Source: Ostreococcus lucimarinus
Lineage: Eukaryota
Strand: one strand, 5' to 3'
Assembly (NCBI GenBank): GCA_000092065.1
Contig: CP000591.1
DNA: 64,000 nucleotides
Below the pieces are notes generated by a model. That model was not told the DNA's origin. It saw nothing but the letters and a program-made list of their open reading frames with translations, and ran no database searches. The position numbers were made by a program, and so were the translations under genes. Positions 1 to 48,313 of the stretch are shown in pieces. The stretch's first letter is position 1; each line of letters starts with the position of its first letter.

Positions 1-486
1 GCTTATGCTCAGCGTCTTCTTCCTCCCCGCCCTGTGCGCGCGCGCGTCGTCCCCCTCGTCCCCGCTCTCTCGCGCGAACTCTCCTCCCGCGCTCCCTCGT
101 CCGAAACCAAAGCTAAAATTACTCTCTCTCCACGCCCGCTCCACCTCGCTCGAAAAGTGTCGATGGTGCCTATCCACCGCCGCGCGCAGCGCGTCCACGT
201 TGAACACCCCATCCTGCCCCGCCGCGCCCTGGCTCGTCGCCCGCGCGCGCTCGCGACCCAACCCCGCGTCCGTTCGTTCGCCCTTCACCGCGCCGCTTCT
301 TCGCTCGACGTCCGTCTCGCGCGTCGTCGTCGTCGTCGTCGTCGCCGCCGCGCGCGCCTTATCGCGTCGGCTCGCGTCGTCGCCGTCCCGGCCCCGTCCC
401 GCGTCGCGCATCCGCGCCGTCGCGACGCCCCGCGCGCGAAAACCGTCGCGTTTTCGCGCGTCGCGTCGTTCGCGTCGTCCTTCGTC

Positions 487-523
<37 letters not shown>

Positions 524-849
524 GTGCGAATGCGTGAATGAACGAATGAATCTCTTCGTCGCGTCGCCGTCTCGCGCGCACGCGGACTCGCGGCGCCGCG
601 TCGCGCCCCGCCGTCGCGCCCGTGCCTACGCGCCGCGTCCGCGACGACGCGCGCGTCGGCGTGTGCGGCCGCGGTGAATCGATTCGAATCGTAAAGATTC
701 GCGAAAACACGCGCGCGGCGTCACATCGCGACGCGCGCGCGCCGGCGAAGCCGCGCGTCGACTCGACGTCGGACCGCGCGCGCGCGACGTCGCGGGACGA
801 CGCGCGCGCGACGCGGCGGCGCCGAACGACGCGTCGGAAGATTTAAAAG

Positions 850-3702
850 ATGCGCGGAAACAGATGCGCGGCGACGGCGCGCGCGACGGACGATCTGGGC
901 GCGCGAACGGCGGCGGCGGTGTGCGATGACGATCCGTTCGCGTTCGGGGCGCGCGCGCGGGCGCTGTTCGAGGACATCGACGGGGAGACGCTGGCGGAGG
1001 ACGACGACGACGACGACGACGACGCGAGACGCGGCGACGCGCGAAGGATCGGTCGGGGGGTGAGCGTGTTCGAGAAGGTGCGACGGGAGAAGGCGGGGAC
1101 GACGATGACGGCGACGACGGCGACGACGGCGACGGCGACGGCGACGGCGGAGGAAGAGGAAGAGGACGCGTTCGACGAGCCGAGGGCGAAGGCGAAGGCG
1201 AACGCGAAGAAGCCGGCGAAGGCGAAGGCGGGACGCGAGAGAGCGAGGGAAAAGACCGCGCGGGACGGCGGTGATGACGACGTGATGGTCGTGGACGACG
1301 ACGTCGGGGAGTGCGCGAGGCCGGCGGAGGATTTGTTTGACGAAGTCGCGGCGACGGGCGATAAGCGCGCGAAACGCGAGGTGAAGACGCTGGCGCGGCC
1401 GAAGAAGCGCGTCGTGGAGGCGCCGGCGGCGGTGGTCGAGACGCATGCGGTGATGCCGGCGCCGTCGGCGCGCGCGAAGGCGTCGACGACGGGGCGAATC
1501 CGGGCGTCGACGTCCGCCGCGGCGTCGGCGCCGCCGCCCGCGAAGAAGAAGAAGGTGTCGCTCAAGGAGTTCGCCGGGGAAGAAGACGGCGACGAGGGAG
1601 GGTTCGACGACGGCGAAGGCGACGACGACCACGGTCTGGTGCCGCAATCGGGCGCGCAGTTGGCGGACATCGATGAGGCCAACTACGCGGTGTCGGGGTT
1701 GTCCACCGTGAGGGACGTCAAGGAGAAGATGCGGTGCGTCGGCGTCTTGGCCAATTTGATGGGTAATCAGCGCACGCGCAGGCTGTTGGCGTCGTACGGC
1801 ATACCGATGAAGATCATCAAGGCTGCGCAAGACGCCGCGATGGCGCCGCACGCGCCCAATGCGTTGAAGTTTGGCGCCGCGGCGCTGTTGTATCTCGCCG
1901 CGAGCGATTTGCGGGCGCCCGCGACGGACGCGATGCGCAGCGTCAAGTCGGCGAACGCGATTCGCGCTTTGCTCCGTCCAGCGAGTTCGAGCGATGACGC
2001 GCTGTACTTGAAAACCGCCAACACGGTTCGCTCGGCGTTGAAGGCGTTGAAGTTTTTGCCGAACGAGGCCAAGGACGCGCCGACGCTCGCGCTCCTCGTC
2101 GCGCATCAAACGCTCAAGGGTGAGCAGGACGCCGTGCTCGCCTCGGGATCGGGTCCGGGCGCGGGTGACGTTGAAAATAGCTTCCGAACGATTTTGGCGA
2201 ATCAAGGCGCGGTGCTCGCGACGTGTGAACTCGTCGCGCAAGCCACGACGACGTTGAGCAAATTCGGCGGCGCGTGTTTCGTCGCGTCGGCGTCGGCATC
2301 GACGAACGATAGCGTTGACGACGAGTCCACGATCGAGGAGTACGAACAGAGTGCCGCGCGCGTGATCGCGCGTCTGTTCCGCGCGTCGCGTGTGCTCGAG
2401 TGTGTGAGCTTTGAATCGCCAGCCGCGTGCGCGGTGATTTCGACCTCGGCGCTTGGCGGATCGAAGAGAGACGACACGAACGCCGATGTGCGCCCTCTCG
2501 ACTTGCTCGCCGTGTCCACGACGCGCCTGGCGCCGGAAGACGGTCTGAACTCGTCGCGTGGCGATGGGAGAGGGGTTGAATCCGCGACGACGACGGCGGC
2601 GATTGATATCCCGTCGCCTTCGCCCGTCAAATCACGCATCCCGGGTGGAATCACGATGACCCCGCCGAGCACGCCCGGCGCGGTGCGCGTCGCTGGAACA
2701 TCCTACGACGACAACGATGGTTTAACCCCGCTTTCGTCTCCTGTACCGATCGGGTTGATGCAAACAGCCGCGACGCGAGACAACGCGGCAGCGATTCAGT
2801 GGTTGGCGGATAACGTGCGCACCCCCGTGAAGGGTGGATCGCACAACGCGCGAACGGCGTGTCGAGCACTCGTGGAGGCGCTTCCGACGCTTGCGGCGGC
2901 GACGACGGCGTCGGTCGTAGGCGCGAAGAAAGGAGACGTCGTGCAAGGCATCGAGATTCGTTACAACGCCGCCATCGCCGTCGACCACCGCGTCGCCGTC
3001 GGCGCGTTGAAATCCGCGTTGTGCACGCTGACGAACGTGACGAACGAGAATAAGGAGGGTTGTGACGCCGTCGTTGGGGAAGATAGTCGTGGATTACTCG
3101 TCATCGCGAGTTTAATTCCCTGGTTGGCGTTATCGATTGAAGGATTCACGCTTCGCGACGCGAAGGAGCGCAAGCGCACCCGAACGCCGACGGATGATTC
3201 CGGATCGTCACTCTTGAATGCCGCGCTGGTGTTGCTCGTCAACATCGTCGAAGCAGATGCGACGACGGCAGATGTCCTGCGCAACGCAATGGTGCGCTTA
3301 CCGGGCGACTCGTCTCGAGGCGCGTCCTTCGTCGAAGCGCTCACGATGTTGTACCTGCAGTCGGGCGGCGCCGACGAAGACGAAGACGAGGGCGAAAAAG
3401 AGACGGCCGAGGAGGCGCAACATCTCACGGCGGACATGATTAAATCTTACTCGTCGAAAACCAACGGCGACGATTTGATCTTACAGGCGTACTGCGGATT
3501 GTTGCTCGCGTTTTTGATCGAAGACGACGCCGCGTTGCGCGCCGAAGTCACGTCGACGTTTCCCGAAAAGCCGCAAGGCACTTCGCGTCTCAAGCCGTTG
3601 GCCGACACCCTCGAGCGTTTCCACGCGTTTCACGAGAGTTTGAATAGCATCTCTGCCGCGTCCAGCGAGCGACTGGTAAAGGTGGTGACCTGGCTCCGAT
3701 GA
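850..3702 (+). CDS. WAPL-like protein (possible cohesin release factor) with a long acidic, low-complexity N-terminal region
   Basis: 950-aa ORF. The C-terminal segment DDLILQAYCGLLLAFLIEDD...LERFHAFHESLN follows the pattern of the WAPL C-terminus (ASYTALLLGCL...KKFLSFMNL). Alpha-solenoid-like repeats lie upstream. Similarity is judged from memory and not verified. Confidence 0.4.
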   Translation: MRGNRCAATARATDDLGARTAAAVCDDDPFAFGARARALFEDIDGETLAEDDDDDDDDARRGDARRIGRGVSVFEKVRREKAGTTMTATTATTATATATAEEEEEDAFDEPRAKAKANAKKPAKAKAGRERAREKTARDGGDDDVMVVDDDVGECARPAEDLFDEVAATGDKRAKREVKTLARPKKRVVEAPAAVVETHAVMPAPSARAKASTTGRIRASTSAAASAPPPAKKKKVSLKEFAGEEDGDEGGFDDGEGDDDHGLVPQSGAQLADIDEANYAVSGLSTVRDVKEKMRCVGVLANLMGNQRTRRLLASYGIPMKIIKAAQDAAMAPHAPNALKFGAAALLYLAASDLRAPATDAMRSVKSANAIRALLRPASSSDDALYLKTANTVRSALKALKFLPNEAKDAPTLALLVAHQTLKGEQDAVLASGSGPGAGDVENSFRTILANQGAVLATCELVAQATTTLSKFGGACFVASASASTNDSVDDESTIEEYEQSAARVIARLFRASRVLECVSFESPAACAVISTSALGGSKRDDTNADVRPLDLLAVSTTRLAPEDGLNSSRGDGRGVESATTTAAIDIPSPSPVKSRIPGGITMTPPSTPGAVRVAGTSYDDNDGLTPLSSPVPIGLMQTAATRDNAAAIQWLADNVRTPVKGGSHNARTACRALVEALPTLAAATTASVVGAKKGDVVQGIEIRYNAAIAVDHRVAVGALKSALCTLTNVTNENKEGCDAVVGEDSRGLLVIASLIPWLALSIEGFTLRDAKERKRTRTPTDDSGSSLLNAALVLLVNIVEADATTADVLRNAMVRLPGDSSRGASFVEALTMLYLQSGGADEDEDEGEKETAEEAQHLTADMIKSYSSKTNGDDLILQAYCGLLLAFLIEDDAALRAEVTSTFPEKPQGTSRLKPLADTLERFHAFHESLNSISAASSERLVKVVTWLR

Positions 3703-3866
3703 CGAGACGATTTCGACGCCGATCGCGTAGCCGTGTGCGTTTTCTTGTGATAAAAATGAAACATCGTCGCCTTCGAAGACGACGCGGAGTGGTGCGATGC
3801 AAGCAAGGCAGTGCTTTTTCTTGTGCGCAGCTCGTAAAAAAACTTTTGCTCGCCAAAAGAGAAGTC

Positions 3867-3982
3867 GTGACCCAGGCAGGAGTCGAACCCGCAACCTTCA
3901 GATAACTTCAACGGCGTCCTCGCGTTCGCGAGGAGACTCTCGAATCACTGGAGTCTGACGCACTACCATTGTGCTACCGAGC
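3867..3982 (-). tRNA. tRNA-Trp (anticodon CCA) with a roughly 44-nt intron between positions 37 and 38
   Basis: The reverse complement reads GGCTCGG-TA-GCAC-AATGGTA-GTGC-G-TCAGA-CTCCAG[intron]A-TCTGA-AGGTT-GCGGG-TTCGACT-CCTGC-CTGGGTC-A. This closely matches eukaryotic tRNA-Trp (GTCTGACTCCAGATCAGAAGGTTGCG). The intron sits at the canonical position. Confidence 0.7.
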
Positions 3983-4612
3983 CATACATATTAAAGACAC
4001 ATTTAAGTCCATATGATATGACTAAATGAGCGATAAACTCCAATTAATGCGCCCTCTCGCGGGGATCGCACATGTGTTACGGGCGCGTCGACGCGCGACG
4101 CGTCGCGCGCGAATTCGCGGTCCACGTTCGCGCGCGCCGCACACTCCGCACGGATCTCTCACCCCCACCACACCTCTCGAGCGCGTTCCGCCCTCGTACG
4201 GTCGATAAAACGCACGCAGTTTTATCGTTTCATCGTTTCATCGCAGTTCAGGTGCGGGATTCGCGCGCGCGCGCGAGAAGGACGACATCGGGCGACACCG
4301 CGGGATTCGCGCGAGGGGTCGGTCGCGTCGCGCGGTGGATGCGCGACGCGACGCGGCGCGACGCGACGCGAATCCTCGTCGCGGTCGCGCGCGCGCGGGT
4401 TCGGCGATACGTTTTCGTCGACGTCGAACGCGCGCGCGAGGACGCGCGCGAAACGATCGACGAGGCGCGCGCGCGTCGATCGAACGCGACGAGGATTCGA
4501 GGGCGAGATAAAGATGGGAGCGAAGGCGGGAGCGAAGGCGGGAGCGAGCGAGCGAACGACTGACGCGATCGATCGTCGCGCCTGATGTAGACTACGAACA
4601 CACAGAAGAAGA

Positions 4613-4819
4613 ATGCCCGGCACGCAATCGGTATACGTCTCGCTGTCCATCCTCGCCCTGACGGGACTCGTCGGGACCGGGGTCGCCATCGGCTCGGGCG
4701 TGTCCATGATGTCCATGGCCATGGTCGAGGAAGAGCAAAAGCAGCAAGCGGTCGTGGCTTCCGTGAAGGAGGCGTCGGCGCGCGTGCCGTCTCGCGGTTT
4801 CGCCGCGAGCGGTAACTAG
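4613..4819 (+). CDS. hypothetical small membrane protein with a glycine-zipper TM helix
   Basis: 68-aa ORF in a lower-GC patch. It has a hydrophobic GLVGTGVAIGSGVSMM segment of GxxxG/GxGxG type followed by a charged tail. It may continue by splicing (GTAACT follows the stop). Very tentative. Confidence 0.2.
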   Translation: MPGTQSVYVSLSILALTGLVGTGVAIGSGVSMMSMAMVEEEQKQQAVVASVKEASARVPSRGFAASGN

Positions 4820-5014
4820 ACGGCCCGCCGTCGGTAAACATGTACCTACCGCCTTCACTTCCGGACGTCTCAAATCCGCCGTTCGTCGTGTTCGATACAT
4901 TCTTCACCTCCATCGTGTACCCGTAAAAGTTACTCACTTTCCTGATCTGTAATAAAAAGAAGCGGATGATGAAATATTAATTACACAAGTTTGTTTCGCG
5001 GTTTATTTCACTGC

Positions 5015-6946
5015 TTACTTGATTTTCATGACGTCCACGCGCGTGCGCTTGGCGACGTCGTGCGGGTGCGATTCGCCGTCGTCTTGTCCATCCGTCGTCG
5101 GGTGCACGACGATTTTCGCCAAGCCGCCGCCGACGGCGCCGCGCGCCAATCGACCGGGGTTGACGCACACGACGCCGTCGATGTCTTCGGCGAATGTTTT
5201 CAAGTCACTCGGCATGATCAACACGTCCGGGGTTTGCTTAAACGTCAGATCCTCGCCGTAACGCGCGTCCAAGCACGCCGACGCGTCCGGCGGGTACAGC
5301 GGGTACGCGCAGCCTTGCGTCAAGACGTGCTTGGCGAGACGCGCGAGGCGGTCTTTGGGCACGAATCCCTTGGAGATTTCTTGTGCGCTCAGATGCTTCA
5401 ACACGTCGTGCGAGCACGCGGAAAACACGATGCCGTTGATGGTGAACGTCCCGGGATTCGAGGCGGAGAACGCGCGCTTGGCGCGCGCCGCGTCGGCGCT
5501 CACGTACGCGTCGAGCGACGCCGCGGGTTGCGGGAACACGGGATCGAGCGTCACGTCGCGGATGCTCGGGACGAAGATCACTTTCGTGCGGATCGTCTCG
5601 TCCTTGAAGAGCTTGTCTTCAATCTTATCCACCACAACCTTGGCCACTTCGTCGTACGTCAACCCCCCGCACTCGGCGCGCTTGACAAAGGCGTTTTCGG
5701 CGTCCACGAGCGGGCCACACAAAACCAACGCGTCGGGATTTTCTTCGCGCACGTAATCCAACATATCGTTCAATGGCTCGTACTTCAAATCGCTCGAGCA
5801 CGAGAACGGCCCGCTGGCGACGATGACTTTCGTCCCTCTCGCGAACGCCGGCGACGTCTTTTTCGAACGCGCGGGCGCTCGCGCGGAGACGGCGTCGATG
5901 GATTTCGCCACCAAGCAGTGCCCCGCGGGGTTGCGCCCGCACACCTTGACGACTTGTCCCGGGAACAAGCTGTACTCTTTCATGTCGCGAAGCTCCAAGC
6001 GCACGCGCGCGCCGAACGAACCCTCGGTCGAGCCCTCGATGGCGACGGTTTTCTCCGTCAACTTGGCGTCGCCGGCGTGCGCGCTCACCACGCGCCCGAC
6101 AAAGTGTCCATCTTCGTCGCCAGTCTTTGACCCCACGGCGGAGACGCGCACGACGTCGGACGCCGAAGTCGTCGTCTGCGTCGCCTCGGTCGCCTTGACG
6201 TCCTCGTCGTCGTCCGCGTCGCCCAAAACCTCGAACAAATTCTCCGCGTCTCGAATGCGCTCGTCGACGACGCGCACGCGGTCGGAGATCCTATCCCGCA
6301 TGTATCGAAATTTGTCCGCGCTCACGATTTGCGTCATCGACACTTCGCTCTCTTCCGCGTCGTCCCGTTTCACCACGTCGCTTCCCAAGTGCGCGTTCAT
6401 CACCGTCCCCGCGCCGCCGTCGCTCCGACTCGCCAAACTCCCCGCGCTCCCCGGCGTCGCCGCGCGTTTCGCGTACTCACTCGTCTGCTCCCCCCCCACC
6501 GCGTTCAGCGCCTCCGACCACTCCCTCTTACTCCGCATCGGCGTTTTATACGTCCCCGTCGACGTCGATTCGCGTCTATCGCCACCCTTCGCGCTCGCCG
6601 GCGTCGTCGGCGTCGTCGGCGTCCCGCCCCGTCGTCGTTTTCTTCCGAATTCGCTCGTTTTCTGCGCCGTTTTCGTCGCGCTCTGCGATTCGCGCTGTTG
6701 TTTCCACGTCATCGCGAATCGTTCGAACGTTTCGATGCGCTCGATCGCGACGCTCTGGCGGTCTCGCGCGTCGAGCGTGTTCGAGAGTTCTAAATCAAAC
6801 ATCACCCAGCAGTCGGCGAGATCTTTCGACGTGAACGACAGCGCGCGCGCGACCGACGCGAGCGCGTCGCGGGCGACGTCGCTCGGGACGTCGAAGCCGT
6901 GCTCTTCGAAGCGCTCGCGGATGTCGGGCGGGAGGGCGGTCGTCAT
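5015..6946 (-). CDS. POLA2: DNA polymerase alpha subunit B (POLA2/Pol12)
   Basis: N-terminal domain followed by a calcineurin-like phosphoesterase domain with IVASGPF, LVLCGPLVD, KVIFVPSIRDV and VLIMPSDL motifs. Start taken at MTTALPPDIRERFEEHGF (ATG at 6946). The ORF-track extension to 7552 overlaps UGM in another frame and is run-through. Confidence 0.85.
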   Translation of the reverse strand: MTTALPPDIRERFEEHGFDVPSDVARDALASVARALSFTSKDLADCWVMFDLELSNTLDARDRQSVAIERIETFERFAMTWKQQRESQSATKTAQKTSEFGRKRRRGGTPTTPTTPASAKGGDRRESTSTGTYKTPMRSKREWSEALNAVGGEQTSEYAKRAATPGSAGSLASRSDGGAGTVMNAHLGSDVVKRDDAEESEVSMTQIVSADKFRYMRDRISDRVRVVDERIRDAENLFEVLGDADDDEDVKATEATQTTTSASDVVRVSAVGSKTGDEDGHFVGRVVSAHAGDAKLTEKTVAIEGSTEGSFGARVRLELRDMKEYSLFPGQVVKVCGRNPAGHCLVAKSIDAVSARAPARSKKTSPAFARGTKVIVASGPFSCSSDLKYEPLNDMLDYVREENPDALVLCGPLVDAENAFVKRAECGGLTYDEVAKVVVDKIEDKLFKDETIRTKVIFVPSIRDVTLDPVFPQPAASLDAYVSADAARAKRAFSASNPGTFTINGIVFSACSHDVLKHLSAQEISKGFVPKDRLARLAKHVLTQGCAYPLYPPDASACLDARYGEDLTFKQTPDVLIMPSDLKTFAEDIDGVVCVNPGRLARGAVGGGLAKIVVHPTTDGQDDGESHPHDVAKRTRVDVMKIK

Positions 6947-7068
6947 GGCGCGCGACGGCGTGTGGCGATCGCGCGGCGAGGCGTTTGAAAATTTAAAATC
7001 CGAGCTGTCGGGGGTGTACGAACGCGCGACGACGCGACGCGACGCGAAGCGCGCGGAATCGCGATCGA

Positions 7069-8433
7069 TCACTTCGGGCCGTCGCCCTCGCCCAGGACGG
7101 TCTTTTGGCGCTTCGCGTCGCGCGCGTCGCCGACGCTGAAGACGTCGTCGAAGGTTTCGAGCGCGTTTAAAAACGCCTGGTCCATGTTGAAGTACTTGTA
7201 ACTCGCGAGGCGGCCGACGAAGACGACGCCGGGCTCTTTCGCCGCCATGTCGCGGTACTTTTCGTATAACTCGCGGTTGGCGGGGTTGGGAACGGGGTAA
7301 TACGGCTCGCCGTGATCGCACGAGTACTCTTTGAAGACGACGGTGCCCGCGTGCTCGCGCGCCTCGCGCGGCTGGTTGGGCTTGTGCTTGTACTCGACGA
7401 CGCGCGTGTGCTCGACTTCCGGACCGGGGTAGTTGAGCTGTAAGCACGGTTGGTAGAAGAATGGTTTCGTTTTGTCCTCGCCCTCGTGGTACTCTTCGAA
7501 GAAACGCAGACTTCGGTACTCGAGCTTGGGCAAACCTTGAGACGCGTACCACGCGTCGATGGGGCCGGTGAAGACGACGAACTTTCGCGCCTTGCTTCTC
7601 AACATGTCTTTGTGCTCAAAAAAGTCGGTGTTCAGGCGCACGGTGATGTTCGGATCGCCCATGATCATATTTTCGAAAATCCTCGTGTACCCGTGCTTCG
7701 GCAACGCTTGGTGCGGATCGCTAAAGTACCTATCGTCGACGTCTTCGCGCACGGGTATCCTCGCCAAGACGCTCGCGTCCAGCTCCTCGGGGTACTTATC
7801 CCACTGCTTCTTCGTGTAATGCTTAAATATCGCCTCGTACAGCTCCGCCCCCGCCCTCGTCAGCGCGCTCTCTTCTCCGTTCTTCGGATTCTCGTTCACC
7901 GACCGTCTGGCGTCCAACCATCTTCGCGCGTCCTCGTCCGTCTTCAAATCCGCCTCGGGAAACAGCGCGTTGATCGTGTCCCTGTTCGGCGGCACCCCCA
8001 CGATTCGGTACCGCCTCCCCCCGTGTTCGTACTCCCCGTCCTCGCGCTCGATCGCCGCCTTCACTCGGTGTTCGTACGGCGTCCACTCGCTGAATCGATT
8101 CACGTATTCCCACACCCGCGCGTGCTTCGTGTGAAACAAGTGCACGCCGTACTGCGACACCCTGAACCCCTTCGCGTTCACGAAGTCGTAGCAGTTCCCG
8201 CCGACGTGATCGCGCTTGTCCACGAGAAGCGTCTTCATCCCGAGCTCTCGCGACGCGCGGCTCGCGAAGACGCAGCCCGAGATGCCGGCGCCGACGACGA
8301 CGAGGTCGAACTCGCGGTCGCGAATCCGCGCGTCGCTCGCGACGCCGGCGAACCAGCTCGGATCGTGGTCGTTGCCGCGACGGACGGAGACGTCCACGCC
8401 CGCCCACTCGTCGGCGTCGGCGCGCGCGCGCAT
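7069..8433 (-). CDS. UGM: UDP-galactopyranose mutase
   Basis: FAD-binding DLVVVGAGISGCVFA motif. The segments YTKKQWDKYPEELDASVLARIPV and PYYPVPNPANRELYEKY are typical of eukaryotic UGM (Glf). Start taken at MRARADADEW (8433). The upstream 208 aa of the track ORF are repeat and run-through. Confidence 0.85.
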   Translation of the reverse strand: MRARADADEWAGVDVSVRRGNDHDPSWFAGVASDARIRDREFDLVVVGAGISGCVFASRASRELGMKTLLVDKRDHVGGNCYDFVNAKGFRVSQYGVHLFHTKHARVWEYVNRFSEWTPYEHRVKAAIEREDGEYEHGGRRYRIVGVPPNRDTINALFPEADLKTDEDARRWLDARRSVNENPKNGEESALTRAGAELYEAIFKHYTKKQWDKYPEELDASVLARIPVREDVDDRYFSDPHQALPKHGYTRIFENMIMGDPNITVRLNTDFFEHKDMLRSKARKFVVFTGPIDAWYASQGLPKLEYRSLRFFEEYHEGEDKTKPFFYQPCLQLNYPGPEVEHTRVVEYKHKPNQPREAREHAGTVVFKEYSCDHGEPYYPVPNPANRELYEKYRDMAAKEPGVVFVGRLASYKYFNMDQAFLNALETFDDVFSVGDARDAKRQKTVLGEGDGPK

Positions 8434-8648
8434 GGCGACGCGACGCGGCGCGGTGTGCGGCGGAGCGGTCGGACGTCGGCGAACGACGACCGGTCGGCGA
8501 CGACCGCGGCGTCGCGCGCGACGTCGAGCGACGGCGCGCGCGCGTCGGCGCGTCGTCGACGTCGCGTCGGCGCGCGCTCTCGCGCCGTCGCGCGTCGCGT
8601 CGGGACACCGCGACGGCGTGAAGAGTCGAATCGTCACTTCGGCGCGCC

Positions 8649-8661
8649 ATGGGCGCCGCGC

Positions 8662-8723
<62 letters not shown>

Positions 8724-9467
8724 CCGCGCGACGCCGCGCGCGCGTCGTCGTCGCCGCCGGACGACGACGCGCCGACGCTCGCGCGCGCGCGCGAGGACGA
8801 CGCGACGCTGCGAACGAGCGAACCGTTGTTGACGCCGCGCGTGGCGCGCGCGCTGCGAGCGCGCGTCGAGCCGAGGGCGGGCGCGGTGACGTGGACGCGC
8901 GCGTTCGATTCGCGCGCGTGCGGATTGGCGAGTCTTCGTCGCGTCGTCGAGCGGTGCGCGGGCGTCGGACGCGCGCTCGTGCTCGTGCAACCCGAGGCGG
9001 CGGACGAGGCCGAGGCCGAGGACGAGGACGAGGCGTACTACGTCGCGCACGTCTCACCGGGTTTCCAAGCGAAGCCTCGGCACGATTTCCACGGCGACGA
9101 CGCGTGCAAGACGTTTCGCGTCGACGGAAAACGCGGCGTCGTCGTCGACACGTCCGGGGTCTCCGTCGCGCCGCTGTATTGCGCGTACGGCTACTCCCGA
9201 CACGGCGACGTCGTCAACGGGTTCGGGATGTTCGGTAAGATCGGGCGCCACGCCTTATTCGTGGACGCCGCCCTGGAAAACGCGCACGCGGACTTCGGCG
9301 CGCGTCGCTTCTCCGTGCGTCGCGTCGAAGTCTGGGCGCTTGAGGCGCGCGCGCCCGGAATCGACGCCGGCGCTTCGCCGCGCGCGGCGACGCGCGATCG
9401 AGCGACGATGGCGCAGTTTACGTCATCCGCGATCGCCCGCGACGTCCTCGACGCCACGACCGGCTGA
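8649..9467 (+). CDS. hypothetical protein whose C-terminal approximately 96 aa are duplicated downstream at 11611-11904
   Basis: 272-aa ORF. The N-terminus is low-complexity (MGAAPSSPSS..., possible MGxxxS myristoylation motif). A globular-looking region (AYYVAHVSPGFQAKPRHDFHGDD...GFGMFGKIGRHALFVDAALENAHADFG) spans the repeat boundary at 9175. No family recognised. Confidence 0.4.
8651..8726. repeat. (GTCGTCGCC)n microsatellite, about 8 units, in the divergent UGM / 8649-gene promoter and 5-prime region
   Basis: Direct reading. It translates as SPSSPSS on the plus strand and TTATTATT on the minus strand inside two different ORF extensions. Confidence 0.6.
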
Positions 9468-10119
9468 CATCAAGACCGCGACGGAACGTCGAGGAAAGAT
9501 CTCGTCGACGCGCTGTTTCGCGAGTGCGGCGGACCAGAAGGTGTGGGAGGCGCTGACGGATACGCGCGGCGTACGAGGCGACGTTCGCGGCGATTGAGGA
9601 CGCGCGTCGCGCGAGATAGATGATAGATTGATACTAGATAGATCTGATGCAGCTCCTAGGCAGTCTCCTACGCGGTAGGAGACCTTGTTGTAACATACGA
9701 TGTACGACGGATCCAAAAAGTGCGAGCACGTCACCGTCGACGACCCGTCCTCGAGCGCGCGAGCGCGACGCGCCGTTTTCAGTGACAAAAAAGAATGGCA
9801 ACTTTGTTACCTCACCGGGATTCGAACCCGAGTCTGTTCGTGGAAGCGCGTGGCGTGTCCGTCAGTGTCGCGTTCACAATTTTTGGTGTCAACGTGTCCG
9901 TTCGCGTGTTCACGTGCGATGGGCGCGAAGATGCGTAGAATACGTACCTCTAGGGTGAAAGCCTAGCGTGATAACCATCTACACTATGAAGTACCGCTCG
10001 ACCCCGCAAGGGGCCGCAGCGATCGATCTCTCCGATGTTTCGGAGTTCACGGGATGTACTCATGTTTCAGCTCGTCCACACTTTCGTGTGGCTAGATAGA
10101 GATGTGTGCGGCTTGACAC
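9175..10119. repeat. Copy 1 of a 945-bp direct repeat (segment A)
   Basis: Identical at the ORF-translation level in three frames to 11612-12556, with a constant offset of 2437 bp. Starts TGTATTGCG and ends GCTTGACA(C). Contains an ENY2-like gene fragment, a hairpin and a tRNA-like fragment. Confidence 0.8.
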
Positions 10120-10359
10120 GACGACGAGGTCGAACTCGCGGTCGCGAATCCGCGCGTCGCTCGCGACGCGGCGTCGTCGCGCGTCGTCGCTCGCGGGTGC
10201 GCGCGCGGCGCCATCACCGCGCGCCGCGAAGTGACGACGCCCGCGCCGCTCAGGAAAAATTTATATATCGCCCCTTTAGAGAGTACCTACACACATGACG
10301 AGTCATGAACCAAGGATGCGGGGAGATCTCGCCGTCGGCGCCACTCGTCGCCGCATACG

Positions 10360-11376
10360 ATGACCGATTCAGTCGCGCACGCCTCACCGACGTGGAGAAC
10401 GTACTCATTAGACCCGTCGCTGCAACCGGACTGGATGAACGGCACGGCGGAGGTAGAGGCGGTCAAAACAGCGGAGGATGAACTCGAGCGCTCGTACAAG
10501 AACAAGCCATTCTTCAAGAACACAAGCTACGAGGCATTCGCCAGAAAACGAGGCGAGTATGATAAACCGACGCCCGACGGCCTCGAGGAGTTCAAGCGTC
10601 TCCTACGGGCGAGTTATCTTCGCACCGTAGAGCGCATCGATGAAGATACCCAAGTTCTGGAAGCCCAGCTACAAGACGAGAATATCTCTGAAACGCGACG
10701 GTCGGTTATCCCGCAGCACATCGAGGACACTCGTGCGAAATTAAAAGAGCAAGACAATTCATTGAACGCGCTGTGCGCCGATGTGGATGCGGTTATCGCA
10801 GATTTGAAAGGCTTGCCCGATAAAATTGCCGACATAAAAGAACACGCCTCTGAACAACTTCAGCAACACAAAAGAAAAAGAACCAGTATATCTTTGGAAC
10901 GCAACCTCGAGGAGCTGAGCGATGCGCTGCGCAGCTACGAGGCGAAAAAAGAACAGGAGAGGCTCACAATTACCGATTATCGTGGGAAATATGGGTCATG
11001 TCCATCCCAGTATGTTCGCCAGACCGCCTGGGCACGCAGACCTTCTGGTCGTGAAGAAATTAGCTTCATTGTTCATCCTGTGGGTGTCATTGGCTGCGAT
11101 GGCAGTAACCTGAGCGTTGATGGACGTGTTTCGATTGATGGTTATGGTGAGTTTAACGTACCAAAATGGCAGCCTGAATGGGGACCTGAGAAGCAAATGT
11201 GTGCGTGCGAATGCTTCCAAGAGTGGTACAAAGTCGACGCCCAAGACCTTCTTTACAGCGCGCTTCGTGGCGTAGAGGGCGCGCTAAAGGCGCTCAGTGG
11301 TTCGGGAGATGACACGTCTTCGCTTCGACGGCGCTTGGGCGATGCCAATTTGGACGAAGCAAGCACGGGGAGTTAA
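10360..11376 (+). CDS. hypothetical coiled-coil protein, a compositional outlier at about 50% GC
   Basis: 338-aa intact ATG-initiated ORF with codon usage unlike the neighbouring genes. It has a Lys/Glu-rich predicted coiled-coil middle and a Cys/Trp-containing C-terminal region. Lies inside segment B between the two repeat copies. No family recognised. Confidence 0.45.
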   Translation: MTDSVAHASPTWRTYSLDPSLQPDWMNGTAEVEAVKTAEDELERSYKNKPFFKNTSYEAFARKRGEYDKPTPDGLEEFKRLLRASYLRTVERIDEDTQVLEAQLQDENISETRRSVIPQHIEDTRAKLKEQDNSLNALCADVDAVIADLKGLPDKIADIKEHASEQLQQHKRKRTSISLERNLEELSDALRSYEAKKEQERLTITDYRGKYGSCPSQYVRQTAWARRPSGREEISFIVHPVGVIGCDGSNLSVDGRVSIDGYGEFNVPKWQPEWGPEKQMCACECFQEWYKVDAQDLLYSALRGVEGALKALSGSGDDTSSLRRRLGDANLDEASTGS

Positions 11377-11410
11377 TATATGTGGACGTATATTTTGTTG
11401 TCCACGAATG

Positions 11411-11447
<37 letters not shown>

Positions 11448-11611
11448 CGCCTCCAGTCTCGACACAGTATCACTGAGTTCACTGCGAAGTTCGTCGATTT
11501 GCTGATCTCTCGAGGCAACGGCGGCCTCTAAATCGGCGATTTGAGCGTCGTGCTCGACGATTCTTTCGTGCAGCTCCTGGTTTGACTTGACGAGCACAGG
11601 AATGATTTGAG

Positions 11612-12556
11612 TGTATTGCGCGTACGGCTACTCCCGACACGGCGACGTCGTCAACGGGTTCGGGATGTTCGGTAAGATCGGGCGCCACGCCTTATTCGTG
11701 GACGCCGCCCTGGAAAACGCGCACGCGGACTTCGGCGCGCGTCGCTTCTCCGTGCGTCGCGTCGAAGTCTGGGCGCTTGAGGCGCGCGCGCCCGGAATCG
11801 ACGCCGGCGCTTCGCCGCGCGCGGCGACGCGCGATCGAGCGACGATGGCGCAGTTTACGTCATCCGCGATCGCCCGCGACGTCCTCGACGCCACGACCGG
11901 CTGACATCAAGACCGCGACGGAACGTCGAGGAAAGATCTCGTCGACGCGCTGTTTCGCGAGTGCGGCGGACCAGAAGGTGTGGGAGGCGCTGACGGATAC
12001 GCGCGGCGTACGAGGCGACGTTCGCGGCGATTGAGGACGCGCGTCGCGCGAGATAGATGATAGATTGATACTAGATAGATCTGATGCAGCTCCTAGGCAG
12101 TCTCCTACGCGGTAGGAGACCTTGTTGTAACATACGATGTACGACGGATCCAAAAAGTGCGAGCACGTCACCGTCGACGACCCGTCCTCGAGCGCGCGAG
12201 CGCGACGCGCCGTTTTCAGTGACAAAAAAGAATGGCAACTTTGTTACCTCACCGGGATTCGAACCCGAGTCTGTTCGTGGAAGCGCGTGGCGTGTCCGTC
12301 AGTGTCGCGTTCACAATTTTTGGTGTCAACGTGTCCGTTCGCGTGTTCACGTGCGATGGGCGCGAAGATGCGTAGAATACGTACCTCTAGGGTGAAAGCC
12401 TAGCGTGATAACCATCTACACTATGAAGTACCGCTCGACCCCGCAAGGGGCCGCAGCGATCGATCTCTCCGATGTTTCGGAGTTCACGGGATGTACTCAT
12501 GTTTCAGCTCGTCCACACTTTCGTGTGGCTAGATAGAGATGTGTGCGGCTTGACAC
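11612..12556. repeat. Copy 2 of the 945-bp direct repeat (segment A-prime)
   Basis: Same sequence as 9175-10119. The duplicated ORFs 11611-11904, 11628-11894, 11777-12034, 11860-12225, 12084-12395 and 12137-12403 are identical to their copy-1 counterparts. Confidence 0.8.
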
Positions 12557-12700
12557 CGCACATCTGATGAATGACTGTGCGCTAAACTTTTTCACCCAGA
12601 AATCGCGTCGACGGACGCGCGAATGTTACGGTCGGGCGTGACGTGTTTTCGCACGCCGCGCGCCGCGCGTCGTCGCGTTCGTCGCATTCCGCACTTCGCG

Positions 12701-14101
12701 ATGCCGCCGCGAAAGCGCGCGCGCGAGGCTTCGGGCGACCCGGTCGAAACAGAGGAGGGTTCAGCGCGCGCTCGGGATTCGACCGAACCGCCGTCGACCA
12801 CCGCGCCGTCGGCGCCGTGCCCGTACCTGGACACGGTGAACCTCGCGAACCTGGATTTTGACTTTGAGAAGCGGTGCGCGGTGTCGCTGTCGCCCGTGCA
12901 CGTGTACGCGTGCTTGGTCTGCGGCAAGTACTTCGCGGGACGAGGAAAGAAGACGCACGCGTACGCGCACGCGCTGGAGTGCGGACATCACGTGTTCATG
13001 CGCCTGGCCGACGGCGCGGCGTGGTGCCTGCCGGATGGGTACGAGGTGGTGGACGAAGGGACGACGCTGTCGAGGATTCGAGACGTGCTCGCGCCGACGT
13101 ACGCGAAAAAGTACGTGGAGGAAGAGATCGAGGGCGCGCGACCGATGTGGCGGCGCGCGCTGGACGGCACGGAGTTTCTCGTCGGCGTCGTCGGATTGAA
13201 CGCGATTTGGAGCAAACGCGACGACGGCGTGAGCGCGGTGCTGCAATCGCTGAACAGAGTGGCGCCGCTGCGGCGCGCGCTGTTGCTCGACGACGCGAGG
13301 GAACGCGAGGACGTCTATCGCGCCTTGGCGGACATCACGAAGAAGATTTGGAACGCGCGAAATTTTAAAGGTCACTCGAGCCCGCACGAGTTCATGCAAG
13401 CGGTTCGAAATCGATCGAAAGACGCGTTCGGCGCGGAGACGGGGAACCACGACGCCGCGCAGTTCTTGCGTTGGTTGCTCAACGAATTGATTCGCGACGA
13501 AAAGAAACGCGGCGAAAAGCGATCCGTCATTCAGTCGTGTTTCCAGGGAGAAGTGGAAATCATCGACGATTCGTCCGCGTCGCGCGCGTCGCCGTTCCTC
13601 ATGCTCTCGATGGACCTCCCGAACGCGCCGCTGTTTCAAGACGTCATGGAGAAGAACATCATCCCGCAAGTCTCCCTCGAGCGCGCGCTGCTGAAGAAAT
13701 TCGACGGCGTCACCGCGGACCCCAAGACGCGGCGCAGGTTCAAGATCACCAAGCTCCCAAACTACTTGATCGTGAATTATTCGCGCTTCACCAAGAACAA
13801 CTTCTTCGTCGAAAAGAACCCGACCATCGTGACGTTTCCGACGCGGGGGCTGAACCTCGCCGATCACATCCCGGTGCCGAGAGGGGACGAAAATTCGGCG
13901 ACGTACGATTTGATCGCCAACATCGTGCACGACGGCGCGCCCGACGACGGGTCGTATCGCGCCATGGTGTACCACGCGCCGGATAAAAATTGGTACGAGA
14001 CGCAGGATTTGCGCGTCGCCGAGGTGTTGCCGCAACAAGTCAACCTCACGGAGACGTACGTGCAGATTTACGAGCGTCGAGACAAGCGACGAGACGCGTA
14101 G
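12701..14101 (+). CDS. USP39: U4/U6.U5 tri-snRNP-associated protein 2 (USP39/Sad1), an inactive UBP-type hydrolase
   Basis: ZnF-UBP region (CPYLDTVNLANLDFDFEKRCAVSLS...YACLVCGKYFAGRGKKTHAYAHALECGHHVFM) followed by a UCH-like domain (GLNAIWSKRDDGVSAVLQSLNRV ... YDLIANIVHDG). ATG taken at 12701 (MPPRKRARE). Confidence 0.8.
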   Translation: MPPRKRAREASGDPVETEEGSARARDSTEPPSTTAPSAPCPYLDTVNLANLDFDFEKRCAVSLSPVHVYACLVCGKYFAGRGKKTHAYAHALECGHHVFMRLADGAAWCLPDGYEVVDEGTTLSRIRDVLAPTYAKKYVEEEIEGARPMWRRALDGTEFLVGVVGLNAIWSKRDDGVSAVLQSLNRVAPLRRALLLDDAREREDVYRALADITKKIWNARNFKGHSSPHEFMQAVRNRSKDAFGAETGNHDAAQFLRWLLNELIRDEKKRGEKRSVIQSCFQGEVEIIDDSSASRASPFLMLSMDLPNAPLFQDVMEKNIIPQVSLERALLKKFDGVTADPKTRRRFKITKLPNYLIVNYSRFTKNNFFVEKNPTIVTFPTRGLNLADHIPVPRGDENSATYDLIANIVHDGAPDDGSYRAMVYHAPDKNWYETQDLRVAEVLPQQVNLTETYVQIYERRDKRRDA

Positions 14102-18491: not shown

Positions 18492-18875
18492 ATGCCTCGC
18501 CCCACCCCCGCGCCGCCGCCGCCGCCGGCGGCGCGCGACGTCGACGTCGAGCGCGACGCGCTCACCGCGATGCGCAAAGACGGCACGCTCGACGCCCTGC
18601 GCGCGCGCGCGGTCGAGCGCGTTCGCGCGGACCCAGAGATGAAAACCTTCACGGAATTCGCGGCGCGCGCGTCGCAGACGCTGCGCGACCCGCGAGCGAG
18701 GCGCGCGTCGAGGAAAGATCTCGTCGACGCGCTGTTTCACGAGTGCGGCGGACAGATTTTGAAGCAGGCGGACCAGAAGGTGTGGGAGGCGCTGACGGAT
18801 ACGCGCGACGAACTCGGCCGCGCGGCGTACGAGGCGACGTTCGCGGCGATGGAGGACGCGCGTCGCGCGAGATAG
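18492..18875 (+). CDS. ENY2/Sus1-like small protein (SAGA/TREX-2 subunit)
   Basis: 127 aa. ...PEMKTFTEFAARAS...DLVDALFHECGGQILKQADQKVWEALTD follows the ENY2 pattern (LKAHCKEVIKEKG...[26 protein letters not shown]). Degenerate partial copies of its 3-prime end occur at about 9490-9650 and 11927-12087. Confidence 0.4.
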   Translation: MPRPTPAPPPPPAARDVDVERDALTAMRKDGTLDALRARAVERVRADPEMKTFTEFAARASQTLRDPRARRASRKDLVDALFHECGGQILKQADQKVWEALTDTRDELGRAAYEATFAAMEDARRAR

Positions 18876-19157
18876 ATACCGATAGATAATAGATTGATAA
18901 TACATAGATCTGATGTAGCTGATGCCGCCGCCGTCGCGTCGGACGGATCGCCTCGGTCGCCTTCGGTTCGCTTCTCGGCGGCGGCCGCCGACGCGGACGC
19001 CGCCGCGCGTCGCGGTCGTCATGCGCGCGGTTGTGCGGCGACGATTTATTTTACGCCGCGCGACGGGCGAGCGACGCCGGCGAATCGAGCGACGCTGAAT
19101 GCCCGTACGCTGGAATCGCGCGCGAACGCTGACGCGACGATTCGTCCGAGTGGGTGG

Positions 19158-25308: not shown

Positions 25309-25554
25309 GACGCGAGTCCCCTCCGATCGACGAGTGCTGACCCACGAACACGTATTTAAGCCACAAAACGCCACTGTAATCGAACCGCGCGACGCGAGTC
25401 CCCTCCGATCGACGAGTGCTGACCCATAAACACGTATTTAAGCCACAAAACGCCCGCGTAATCGAACCGCGCGACGCGAGTCCCCTCCGATCGACGAGTG
25501 CTGACCCACGAACACGTATTTAAGTCACAAAACGCCCGTGTAATCGAACCGCGC
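25309..25554. repeat. Tandem repeat of 3 x 82 bp, each unit containing a TATTTAAG motif
   Basis: Direct reading. The unit is GACGCGAGTCCCCTCCGATCGACGAGTGCTGACCCACGAACACGTATTTAAGCCACAAAACGCC...ATCGAACCGCGC, with a few substitutions between copies. It lies between the DJ-1 start (25259) and exon 1 of the VDAC-like gene (25796). Confidence 0.8.
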
Positions 25555-34167: not shown

Positions 34168-37100
34168 TCACTCTGGAGGTCGCGGCGCGCGGCGAAATTC
34201 TCGCGGAACCTTCGTCGTGCCGTACCTAGGAGCTGTGAACGTTGGTCGCTCATTGAGCGCTGCAATGTTTGAACTCACGACTACTTCGCTTGCCTCGTTA
34301 TTTGCGCTTTCTATCGACCGTTGACGTCGGAAGTTTTCTCCACCGTACCAACGATCGGAAGCCGCCTCTCGTTTAGCGAGTCGATCGGCATGGAGCGCAC
34401 TTCTCGCCCTGCGCTGTCGTTCGAGTCTTTCCGTCGGTGGTGGTGGCGGCGGATGACGCACAATCTTCGGAGTCGCCTGATCCGGGACCCTCTTAAATCC
34501 TGTGGTGCCTTTCACCATCGTCATACGACCTCCGATGGGTGGGGCCGGCCCCTTGCTCGGATCGGAATCGCGTTCGATTTCTACTCTACCGCCTCGCGTT
34601 GACTTTGCCTGGCGGTGCGAGTTTCCTGAATGTTCCCTTTCCTTCATTTTACGCCAGAACTCGTTCAATCGAAGCTTGGATATCGTCTCATCCTTCTGGC
34701 GTTGCCTCTCGACAGAGCTGTGAATGATTGCACTCACGTTGTGCAGCGTCTCGCGCGAGGGGGCCGCGCCACGTACATCTCGCACATCGCTACTTTCGTC
34801 GTAAAGCGTGATTGCCGTGAGAGCTGAATCGTCCGACAATAGCGCTCGCATATCACTTATGCCGCGCTCGGCCGCCGCGCGAACGCCGGCGTTGTCGTCG
34901 GTGTTTACGATTTTCAAGAGCACGGCGATAAGCTTGTCGGTGTCTTTTTGTAGCCCTTGTACTTTGATATCGCCGTATAGACGCCGATACATCGTCTTTG
35001 ACATCAACGCTCCCCCGGGCATTTTGCGCTTTGCCGCGTCCACGAACCTCTCGAATGCAGCATCCGTGTACGACCCCGTTACGGGTACCTCAAAGTCATA
35101 AAAATTGCCCTCGGTTCCCCATACGAAGAGAGTAATCAAATCCACCAAGGCGTGTATCGAGAGTTCACGCGTCTCAGCTTCATCGTCGATCAGCATACCG
35201 TACAACGCATCGTGCACAAACTGCGCCGCCGACATAGAAATGAAAGCTTTGTAAGATTTTTTTGATACCTCGCCTTCGTCAGATTTTGTATTCATCACTC
35301 GGTAAACTGCGCTCATCTCCAGTTTAATCGATTGATGAAGAAGCTCGATGGCGTGAATTTTCTCTCGTTCTTTACCGGGCTCCATACTAACGATCAAGTG
35401 AGAGAGAGCGCTCAAAAACTCAGATCTGCACGCATCTGCGTTCGTCAGCGCGTAAAGGATTTCAGAGACAAACGTCTCCTTGGACGATCCAGCGTGCGCT
35501 TCCATACATTCAAAGAGAACTTTCAATCCATCGACGGCAAACACGCTCGGTCCCGCGTCACCAACTCGAACTAAAGTCGCGAGAGTCCGAATGGAATAGA
35601 ATGATATCTGCTTGTCCGTGCTTAGTGAGGCGTCGAGCAGCGTCTTCATGAAATCATGCGCGAGCTCAAGTCTTTCTTCATCCGCCTCGTTTTGCAACCT
35701 CCCGACGGCGGCATAATAACCCAGAGAACTGAACCAATTCAATTCAGGTCTATTCTTCGCTTTGACTTCTTGACGTAGCCAGCTACGCGCGACGTAAGTC
35801 ACGCGCTCAGCCTTGTCTAGTCTGCGGACCTCATCCGTGTCCGGATCCCTCACGTGCGTAATGGCTTGAGTGAGCTTTTTCGCAATCGGTCTCGGTGGAA
35901 TCTCGAACGCATCGTCAATTATTTGACGAAACATTCTCGCAGATACGACGTAATCTTCGCCATACATATCCAAATCAATGTCATGAGCTTTAAACAAGAG
36001 CGTCGACATGAGGTTTGCGAAGTCAAAAGACTGAATGCACTCCATCGATACCGTCGCCACGGTCGCTTGAAACGTTTTACTCTCCCCACCCTTGATGCAG
36101 TCTTTAACCGTGGAGACAATCGATTTGACCGCCTCCCATGTCGACGCTGGACTATCATCGTCGCACCAAAGTGCGATCTCTACCGTTCCCTGGACATACG
36201 CATGTATCACGCTTCTGATGAATCCTTCGCCGGCTACTTGGAGAAATTCTTGGTCTGGATCATCGATGATACAATGCATGATGATACCGAGCTCCTCAAA
36301 AGCGTCACTAGCTGTATCCCACGCGTCTCCAACGTCTTCATTCTCGCCGTCTTTCGTCTGCGAGGCCCTTGGCATGTTCGTCTTCTTCACCAAGGGAGAG
36401 AGCAATTGAGTGCGTTGCTCTGTGCTGAGAAGGTTATAAAACGCCACGAGCGCGACGACGCGATCTCTTCTATTCTCTGCCTCAACTTGTTCTTTGATAA
36501 ACTCCGGCGTCATGATCTTCTCAACCTTTTCCACTTGCTCTGGATCGCTCAATTTTTCAAGCTCTGAGCGAATGCACTTGTGATCTCCAAGACTATGATT
36601 GAAGACACGCACCATCACCATCGCGATCAACGTCATGATGATGCCAATCACAACTCCCGGGCGCGTCCAGTTTGAACCACCCGTGTGTGGAACTAAGCCA
36701 TGAGACATCCAAGGTGGATTATTGAAAATTCTCGAGAAATAGGTGACGACGGCGAACATAAACGCGCCACCGAAAGCACCAGCTCTCGATTCATTCCGCT
36801 TTTGCCCGAACCCGCGCAAAGACTGAATATTCATGTGCGCCACGAGTAAAACGAGGCAGACTACTACTGGCATGATATTTCGCAACGAGTTCAGACTTTC
36901 GAGTCGCGCCACGGAATCAAGTGCAGGGACGCCATGACCCGGAAGTTCACCTTCCATGTACGCCGCGATCGTAGCCAAGGAGACCTTCAAAAAGATGCTT
37001 AACATCTCAAAAATTGGGACGGGGCGTAAGTTGGGTTCAAGCGTCTCCGATACCACAGCCATCTTCATCGATACTGCAATCGCGCCGAGGCCAACGAAGA

Positions 37101-42304: not shown

Positions 42305-42350
42305 ATTTAGCGGCTGGTGTTCGCGTCCCCTGAATGATTGACGCGATACG

Positions 42351-43688: not shown

Positions 43689-43708
43689 CTGCAACTAACT
43701 GATTCTTT

Positions 43709-48221: not shown

Positions 48222-48313
48222 ATCGATCGATCGCCGTCGCGATCGCGCGGCGACGCGTCGGCGCGACCGTCGCGCGAGACGACGACGCGCGCGGCGTCGA
48301 CGCGACGCGCGCG

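Follow-up and report, generated by a model that had tools for sequence, protein, structure and literature searches.

Microhomology at four joins of an insertion with a UGM-templated patch in Ostreococcus lucimarinus, and its haplotypes in environmental contigs

The 64,000-nt stretch of Ostreococcus lucimarinus DNA analysed here (contig CP000591.1 of assembly GCA_000092065.1; hereafter the window) holds two direct copies of a repeat, A, which enclose a conserved gene, B. Directly after the first copy of A, an earlier note made from the letters alone had noticed some 50 nt copied from the coding sequence of a UDP-galactopyranose mutase (UGM) gene 1.8 kb upstream. It had taken this copy as a signature of error-prone break repair and as support for a repair origin of the whole A-B-A′ structure. 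The locus raises two questions: whether the short copy is a true templated insertion, and whether a single repair event could have built everything around it.

The copy proved to be exact and slightly longer than first described. An exact-match search of the window placed the 50-mer at 8296-8345 and 10120-10169 only (two copies in 64 kb, 0 mismatches). The identity runs 2 nt further to the left, and the patch at 10118-10169 equals UGM 8294-8345 in 52 of 52 nt, in direct orientation, with its source 1,824 bp (1.8 kb) back. These added bases are AC, with which repeat A also ends. None of 100 dinucleotide-preserving shuffles contained a match to the 50-mer. When exact repeats of at least 24 nt were compared, the patch was the longest dispersed, non-tandem repeat of the 64 kb besides A, the longer ones being A itself or tandem arrays. 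A 34-nt core of the patch was found in eight JGI metagenome contigs, seven times as the UGM gene and once as the junction of A with the patch. A generic repeat, with many copies in unrelated contexts, would have spoken for another origin, as the earlier note itself had pointed out. No such pattern was found in the 64-kb window or in the JGI metagenomes, and the patch is not multicopy, because its core is confined there to the UGM and A-patch contexts.

The source lies inside the minus-strand UGM gene, as had been claimed. The open reading frame (ORF) there reads ...FAGVASDARIRDREFDLVVVGAGISG... / ...VASDARIRDREFDLVVVGAGISG..., and it is assigned to UDP-galactopyranose mutase because an environmental orthologue (L013) carries the Pfam domains GLF and NAD_binding_8. 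UGM is the donor, since every UGM allele seen has the template sequence, including those on contigs with an empty insertion site. The inserted bases pre-exist elsewhere, microhomology is present at both ends of the insert and an insertion-free allele exists; by these features of its sequence, the patch is a genuine templated insertion. The candidate that the patch, with the GC-rich stretch, forms the 5′ end of a second UGM gene was rejected: the UGM frame has no start codon, a stop lies upstream and the ATG is out of frame.

The empty allele, with a single A, no patch and an intact hairpin, was found in five environmental contigs. Three of them were reached through homologues of gene X (L013, from a 70-kb contig, L014 and L015) and two through a DNA scan (L019 and L023). 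L013-L015 align to window positions 1-10119 and 11612 onward, and their site reads ...GGCTTGACAC followed by CGCACATCTGATG. In all five contigs the end of A is directly joined to CGCACATCTG. Because these contigs have a single A and no patch, the window carries a 2,437-bp insertion relative to them, which lies in the gene order UGM (minus strand), X, tRNA-Glu(UUC) (minus strand), insertion, USP39-like gene. The two window copies of A, 945 bp each, are 100% identical. The breakpoint lies where the loop of the hairpin GATGTGTGCGG-CTTGACA-CCGCACATC meets its 3′ arm, about 130 bp upstream of the tRNA gene, and the right arm CCGCACATC occurs only in the empty allele and after the second copy of A (12556-12564). 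The predicted free energy of the hairpin is −12.1 kcal/mol (z = −1.96 versus shuffles). The patch is also found in other strains, as ten environmental contigs carry its junction with A. Read from these contigs, the insertion allele is carried by some wild strains and absent in others.

The patch had been placed at an A/B junction. The actual order is A, UGM, Z, since 10170-10253 is the inverted 5′ end of another gene, Z. The insertion is laid out head to tail on one strand: A to 10119, UGM 8296-8345, Z antisense from +51 to −44, B with a remnant of an S74 gene, and X at 9175. The inserted unit therefore comprises the UGM patch, the Z 5′ end, B and the S74 remnant, plus a second A with its tRNA-Glu gene, and its pieces come from at least four loci. 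Copy-number gain adjoins the breakpoints, A being duplicated over 945 bp and B gaining a second copy. The window lacks the remainder of Z; the Z portion beyond its overlap with UGM is 84 nt long (10170-10253), for which the window itself offers only low-complexity matches of up to 15 nt. Z was identified in L028, where positions 1340-1410 equal window 10221-10151 reversed and then run on as a 146-aa ORF starting MAPRAHPRATTRDDAASRAPRAPPKRRR. In L021 the region upstream of Z forms one unbroken stretch, which consists of a 145-nt segment D, TGATGT, one to three copies of a repeat of about 31 nt, the 5′ untranslated region (5′UTR) and the ATG. A 28-mer from 10226-10253 gave 0 matches in the first metagenome scan; the sole JGI contig with this region (L021) has a single-nucleotide polymorphism (SNP) in the last bases. 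The window copy of B is 97-99.9% identical to environmental B loci.

Microhomology was found on both sides of the patch, as the repair reading had led one to look for. The bases on the A side are AC and not the GAC that had been suggested, and the other side has 8 nt. The overlaps at the four joins are 2 nt (AC) for A to UGM, 8 nt (CGCGACGC, 10162-10169 = 8338-8345) for UGM to Z, 6 nt (GCTCAG) for Z to B and 4 nt (TGTA) for the S74-gene remnant to X. Against 200,000 random joins drawn from the window, with a mean overlap of 0.76 nt, the probabilities are P(≥2) = 0.19, P(≥8) = 0.00076, P(≥6) = 0.0044 and P(≥4) = 0.029, respectively. CGCGACGC stands precisely where the switch occurs in native UGM as well as in native Z, and a wider stretch matches at 17 of 19 positions in the alignment of window, UGM and Z. 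For the third join, the native left flank of B was taken from two contigs of 12.9 and 13.4 kb (L030/L031) with XPG, PsbP, MCM and an SMP-domain gene. This flank reads ...CCGAGCTCAGG followed by AAAAATTTATAT, Z reads ...GCCGCTCAG followed by AGGTG, and the window reads ...GCCGCTCAGG followed by AAAAATTT. For the fourth, the native S74 gene (L008/L010) reads ...GAGTGTA followed by CGATACAG (...GAGTGTACGATAC), X reads ...CCGCTGTA followed by TTGCGCG, and the window passes from ...GAGTGTA to TTGCGCG. Two or more switches, each at microhomology, characterise break-induced replication mediated by microhomology (MMBIR) and fork stalling and template switching (FoSTeS); here four such joins, with 2, 8, 6 and 4 nt, were found.

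The joins were then compared among environmental contigs. The 54-codon ORF of the S74 remnant served as an exact-match handle; it occurs in 85 blocks of the public collection, of which ten places were fetched, and junction counts were taken across all 39 loci. The join of the A end to the patch is present in 10 loci (L010, L021, L030, L032, where it occurs twice, L033, L034 and L036-L039), and that of the patch to Z in 9. The window type of the join from Z to the left end of B was seen in L029, L034 and L038, and the window type of the join from the remnant to X at 9175 in L011, L032, L034, L035, L037 and L038. One contig, L032, runs from X through A, patch, Z, B and remnant into A again and is 99.8% identical to the window. 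Moreover, L035 shows remnant-A-USP39 as the window does, and L011 equals window 10248-11738 at 99.6%. The patch and Z piece are 100% identical in nearly all junction loci, with one SNP in L038 and two in L021. An extra junction in L037 (A at 9261 to Z at −7) was discarded as a scaffold gap of ten Ns.

The haplotypes differ beyond Z. In L010, L029, L033, L036 and L039, the upstream region of Z continues after the Z piece and is followed by a longer S74 remnant, B being inverted relative to A; after these come segment D, 33 nt of unknown origin, and X, entered at 9148 instead of 9175. The join of the S74 remnant to the Z upstream region exists in at least three versions, one of which has a 29-nt fold-back patch from the 5′ end of tRNA-Glu (GTGTAGATGG + CACTATGAAGTACCGCTCGAC). 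This fold-back filler lies at 10243-10273 of L030 and 1363-1393 of L033 (both reverse complement), and consists of 8-10 nt of tRNA-Glu in sense followed by 21 nt in antisense. In L030/L031 the inverted-B arrangement runs on into the chromosomal neighbours of B itself (SMP, MCM, XPG), and the A-UGM-Z join is therefore also linked to the B locus. In L021, which has no B, the region upstream of Z lies directly against the USP39 3′ end, inverted. In L028, B and the S74 remnant are joined to Z at −7, with an S74 breakpoint 2-6 nt from that of the window.

A robust pattern in these contigs is that all rearranged forms share the A-UGM-Z join but not the B-side joins. The other forms carry a longer Z piece and so were not derived from the window form, and the reverse is possible. 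These results suggest that the A-UGM-Z join was probably made once and inherited by a family of later rearrangements. More likely, the window form is a later derivative and A-B-A′ did not come from one event: the first two joins are common to haplotypes that differ in the third and fourth, which argues for at least two events behind the window form. The patch does not show a single repair event behind the whole of A-B-A′, because the same A-UGM-Z join is seen in haplotypes with B inverted, absent or at its own locus. Several orders of events would fit, among them a primary event at locus 1 (the locus with the hairpin at 10119), one at the B locus, and an inversion with flanking deletions.

We were particularly interested in how such a chain of joins could be made. 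With moderate confidence, we propose that the insertion arose by serial microhomology-mediated template switching in replication-coupled repair, of the MMBIR/FoSTeS type. Template switching is favoured because four switches lie at 2-8 nt, because the path returns behind its origin with a duplication, and because short tracts are set amid kilobase tracts. The process may have begun with a stall or break at the hairpin beside the tRNA gene. The nascent end, having copied locus 1 as far as the hairpin at 10119, would re-anneal by AC to UGM, 1,824 bp behind, and copy about 42-52 nt of it. A second switch, via the 8-nt CGCGACGC, would lead to the antisense of the 5′ end of the unlinked gene Z. After position −44 of Z, the end would pass through GCTCAG into the 1,358-bp B-locus copy, and it would return through TGTA to X at 9175, 945 bp behind its departure, giving the direct duplication of A. 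For the window form, a plausible route would be the copying of an existing rearranged haplotype via the 945-bp A homology and then two switches, or an inversion with flanking deletions. The joins would be products of synthesis rather than ligation. Related haplotypes have further short patches, namely the 29-nt fold-back from tRNA-Glu and the 33-nt piece, and iterative template switching typically leaves patchwork of this kind (PMC8421209, PMC12426944).

Several points weigh against serial switching. Ligation of fragments by microhomology-mediated end joining after several breaks would leave identical junctions. The hairpin is modestly stable (z = −1.96), and a break in its loop fits nuclease opening as well as fork stalling. 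The window B is 1-3% diverged from other sampled B alleles, yet the A copies are identical, which leaves the timing unclear and requires gene conversion to be invoked. Finally, a metagenome contig may be wrongly phased wherever it crosses a repeat that exceeds k; the junctions themselves are firm and their long-range phasing is provisional. An RNA-mediated (retro) origin was also considered and is unlikely, given that the pieces include promoter and intergenic DNA and are of mixed strand polarity.

Other explanations were weighed against the same evidence. A break at the hairpin could have been joined to a broken end of the Z locus by polymerase theta (Pol theta), with the UGM stretch copied as filler before sealing. 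The patch does have microhomology on both sides as a templated filler would, patchwork fillers of several origins are a known outcome of theta-mediated end joining (TMEJ) in plants and animals (PMC12426944), and POLQ exists in green algae such as Chlamydomonas (PMC8495919). However, TMEJ fillers are generally shorter than 25 nt and come from the flanks of the break (PMC12426944), and here 42-52 nt were taken from 1,824 bp away. Replicative switching fits better because a patch of this length from this distance is chained to further tracts (84, 945 and 1358 nt) with a net duplication, and we regard the Pol-theta route as unlikely. Microhomology at all four joins is what template switching or error-prone joining would leave, and the classical Pol-theta filler fits less well. 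Another start would be a tandem duplication of 8294-10119, with a later rearrangement at 8345 by which Z took the place of all that remained of the second copy. The patch does have direct orientation and comes from upstream of A, and the A end joined to 8294 is just what a 1,826-bp tandem duplication would leave. Yet two independent events with breakpoints 52 nt apart would be needed, a second copy longer than 52 nt is retained in none of the 39 loci, and the 8 nt shared at the second join agree with a second switch that followed at once, so that this course appears quite improbable. Even less credit can be given to a mobile element whose target-site duplication was long, or to site-specific integration by the tRNA gene, which is a very improbable origin. 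The site lies about 130 bp from a tRNA gene, direct repeats flank the insertion, and B has a different neighbourhood in each Ostreococcus lineage examined. Nevertheless, no terminal inverted repeats were found at the insertion ends, B is a coiled-coil protein that shows no recombinase or nuclease signature and has no IMG/VR relatives, and the insertion is a mosaic of host gene fragments whose ends differ among haplotypes. A 945-bp duplication, moreover, is neither an att site nor a target-site duplication. An artefact, whether a chance match, a generic GC-rich low-complexity repeat or a misassembled A-B-A′, can be invoked on account of the CG-type low-complexity surroundings and the suspiciously identical A copies. 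It is hardly credible in view of the shuffles and of the restriction of the JGI core to UGM and the junction. All four junctions recur in independent assemblies from different assemblers, with near-identical patch and Z pieces, by which misassembly and chance match are excluded.

The duplication of A admits one further reading. A 2.4-kb chimeric circle (A, patch, Z 5′ end, B and S74 remnant) could have integrated into the chromosomal A in a Campbell-type manner, or the unit could have popped out and been re-amplified. The second A would then not be a product of replication, and the microhomology joins would be earlier, dating from circle formation. L034 is a MEGAHIT loop of one 2,435-bp unit whose first and last 141 nt are identical and which starts exactly at 9175. 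L032 and L038 contain the remnant-A-patch adjacency, which is absent from the single-unit structure of the window and is expected in a circle or an array of at least two units; L032 runs 1.4 times through the unit, and its two units are identical. The linkage of the first two joins to the native B locus in L030/L031 is likewise expected if a circle integrates at either homologous locus, and the complete identity of the A copies agrees with it. On the other hand, a 945-bp repeat collapsed in a de Bruijn graph gives the same cyclic walks without a circle or an array, and no replication origin or maintenance function could be identified in the unit. We hold the circle to be a tentative and rather doubtful account. 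Since it leaves the origin of the joins unexplained, it is complementary to template switching and not exclusive of it. With similar reserve, the 2.4-kb unit may be a chimeric amplicon that is present in wild Ostreococcus as tandem arrays, small circles or both, although we think this improbable. If true, the unit could recombine into the X-USP39 or the MCM-SMP-B parental locus and diversify by microhomology-mediated inversions and deletions, and the amplicon would explain why many isoforms share one founding junction.

Serial template switching was compared with systems in which related structures are known. The MMBIR/FoSTeS cases (human PLP1- and MECP2-type duplications, yeast MMBIR and the MMB-TIs of cancer; PMC8421209) likewise have consecutive switches at 2-8 nt, short and long tracts, templates both nearby and unlinked, and a return behind the point of departure that gives a duplication. 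In contrast, the Ostreococcus case is a natural polymorphism in a haploid marine picoalga and belongs to neither a disease nor a tumour genome. In yeast MMBIR the patches are templated no further than about 100 bp away, whereas the first patch here comes from 1.8 kb. The join is reused in several derived haplotypes. Pol-theta fillers in C. elegans, Drosophila, mouse class-switch recombination joints and Arabidopsis T-DNA junctions (PMC12426944) resemble the patch in that the insert is nearby sequence, in their priming at minimal homology and in their patchworks. They typically have less than 25 nt from the immediate flanks, unlike the 42-52 nt from 1.8 kb, the kilobase tracts and the 945-bp duplication seen here. 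Integration and excision of extrachromosomal circular DNA, and tandem amplicons, share with the locus the direct duplication of a homologous segment flanking the unit and the head-to-tail, unit-length assemblies, but the Ostreococcus signal could be a graph cycle from the 945-bp repeat.

Within the genus, the closest parallel is chromosome 19 of O. tauri (Blanc-Mathieu et al., 2017, PMC5498103), with its strain-specific mosaics of duplications, 2.5-kb tandem units and translocated pieces of standard chromosomes. The authors likened its variation to chromothripsis, and on the standard chromosomes of O. tauri only 3 insertions and 10 deletions were validated (PMC5498103). That work is at the level of blocks on one outlier chromosome, without the anatomy of junctions (PMC5498103), whereas the present locus, judged by its flanks only, lies among housekeeping genes (DNA polymerase alpha subunit B, USP39, tRNA). 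A literature search found no paper that joins Ostreococcus with templated insertions or microhomology.

For human disease, cancer and laboratory models, there is ample record of the junction footprints that microhomology-mediated template switching leaves. To our knowledge, they have rarely been documented in natural populations of marine microbial eukaryotes. The mechanism itself is already known, and the locus is a new and unusually well resolved natural example of it. One locus offers the empty allele, the chimeric join that founded the family and four or more structures derived from it, each recoverable from public ocean metagenomes, so that a mosaic-building mutational process in Ostreococcus, so far described at block level only (O. 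tauri chromosome 19), can be studied base by base. It also provides markers that can be tested by PCR, namely how long the amplicon from X to USP39 is, and primers that face outward from inside the unit. Since a tRNA-Glu gene and the conserved gene B are duplicated by the insertion, dosage effects are possible. The features of the locus are collected in Table 1.

Table 1. Features of the window at and around the insertion.
Feature	Position	Strand	Description
UGM gene	7069..8433	-	UDP-galactopyranose mutase; translation contains MRARADADEW...ASDARIRDREFDLVVVGAGISG; orthologue in L013 with Pfam GLF and NAD_binding_8
Patch template	8294..8345	-	encodes (V)ASDARIRDREFDLVVV directly upstream of GxGxxG motif
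Gene X	8649..9467	+	272-aa ORF, weak TLDc-like match; 3′ part from 9175 within repeat A
Repeat A, copy 1	9175..10119	+	X 3′ end, decayed patch of gene 9 kb downstream, tRNA-Glu gene, hairpin left arm and loop
tRNA-Glu(UUC) gene	9807..9993; second copy 12244-12430	-	Rfam tRNA 41.5 bits, E = 2.4e-7; variable-region insertion of about 115 nt
Breakpoint site	10101..10119	+	left arm GATGTGTGCGG of imperfect hairpin, and loop CTTGACA
Patch (52-nt UGM copy)	10118..10169	+	uniquely UGM only at 10120-10161 (42 nt); AC at 10118-10119 common to A; 10162-10169 (CGCGACGC) common to Z
Inverted gene Z 5′ end	10162..10253	-	about 44 nt of 5′UTR, ATG, about 17 codons (MAPRAHPRATTRDDAAS)
Ectopic B-locus copy	10248..11615	+	10248-10253 (GCTCAG) overlaps Z; 11612-11615 (TGTA) overlaps X
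B ORF	10360..11376	+	338 aa, complete; conserved Ostreococcus protein, long coiled coil, small Cys-containing C-terminal domain (AlphaFold2)
S74-gene remnant	11433..11597	-	54 codons, C-terminal coiled coil of Peptidase_S74 tail-fibre-like gene; cut at join with A copy 2
Repeat A, copy 2	11612..12556	+	ends ...GGCTTGACAC, then CGCACATCTG: intact hairpin arm, upstream region of USP39-like gene
USP39-like gene	12623..14101	+	zf-UBP and UCH; right flank of insertion

The B ORF has 49 homologues, among them an O. tauri protein at 81% and many from marine metagenomes at up to 99%, and no relatives were found in Pfam, PHROG or PDB. Its neighbourhood differs in each Ostreococcus lineage examined (L001-L007, L012, L030 and L031): in O. 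tauri it lies on chromosome 9 (L001), 2.6 kb from the chromosome end; in L012 it lies between SPRY and IP5 2-kinase genes; and in L030/L031 it is beside SMP and MCM. The B locus seems prone to relocation. A 71-bp indel upstream of B (window 10310-10317 versus L010 297-367) is absent in the window, L011, L029 and L034 and present in L008-L010, L028, L030 and L031. A role of B as a recombinase or nuclease was considered and dropped, as no enzyme signature was seen and the AlphaFold2 model consists of long helices and a low-confidence C-terminal domain. A viral origin of B, D or Z was likewise set aside, as scans of IMG/VR returned no relatives.

The full-length S74 gene was found in L008 (1210-2319), where it scores 23.3 bits for Peptidase_S74 (cut-off 22), has a coiled coil at its C terminus and weakly matches phage tail-fibre families. 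Its family is large and multicopy in Ostreococcus-like contigs, with 270 matches and several per contig (e.g. L025 8001-9128 and 16954-17128; L027). One copy of the family lies among small ORFs of unknown function near a Prim-Pol/DUF5906 gene, which suggests a virus-derived region. L012 and L025-L027 represent the sister-clade B locus and S74 paralogues, and were of no help in defining native flanks.

The tRNA-Glu(UUC) gene was missed by ARAGORN in both the window-type and the L035 alleles. These alleles have unrelated insertions at different positions, both with GT..AG-like ends. The window-type and most other alleles carry 115-120 nt in the variable region (GTACGT...ACAG), and the L035 allele (441-625) has no insert there and carries 116 nt where the anticodon stem meets its loop (GTGAGT...CACAG).

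Just 3′ of the X stop, 9487-9654 (also 11924-12091) is a decayed copy of 18706-18920, where a gene 9 kb downstream has the C-terminal end of its coding sequence and its 3′ flank. Relative to its source it has deletions of 20, 17, 7 and 3 nt, the two largest of which lie between direct repeats (GGCGGAC, CGCGCG). It represents an older ectopic patch at the locus, because the empty alleles have it too. The DNA around the insertion is rich in CG-type low-complexity repeats. Elsewhere in the window, tandem arrays lie at 57044-57348 (36-nt unit, GGATATCCGGCAAAGGGATACCCGGCGAACAGCAAC), 47968-48226 (unit of about 122 nt) and 25309-25524 (unit of about 82 nt), and the G+C content of 35000-45000 is 49-55%, markedly below that of the rest of the window (about 60-72%).

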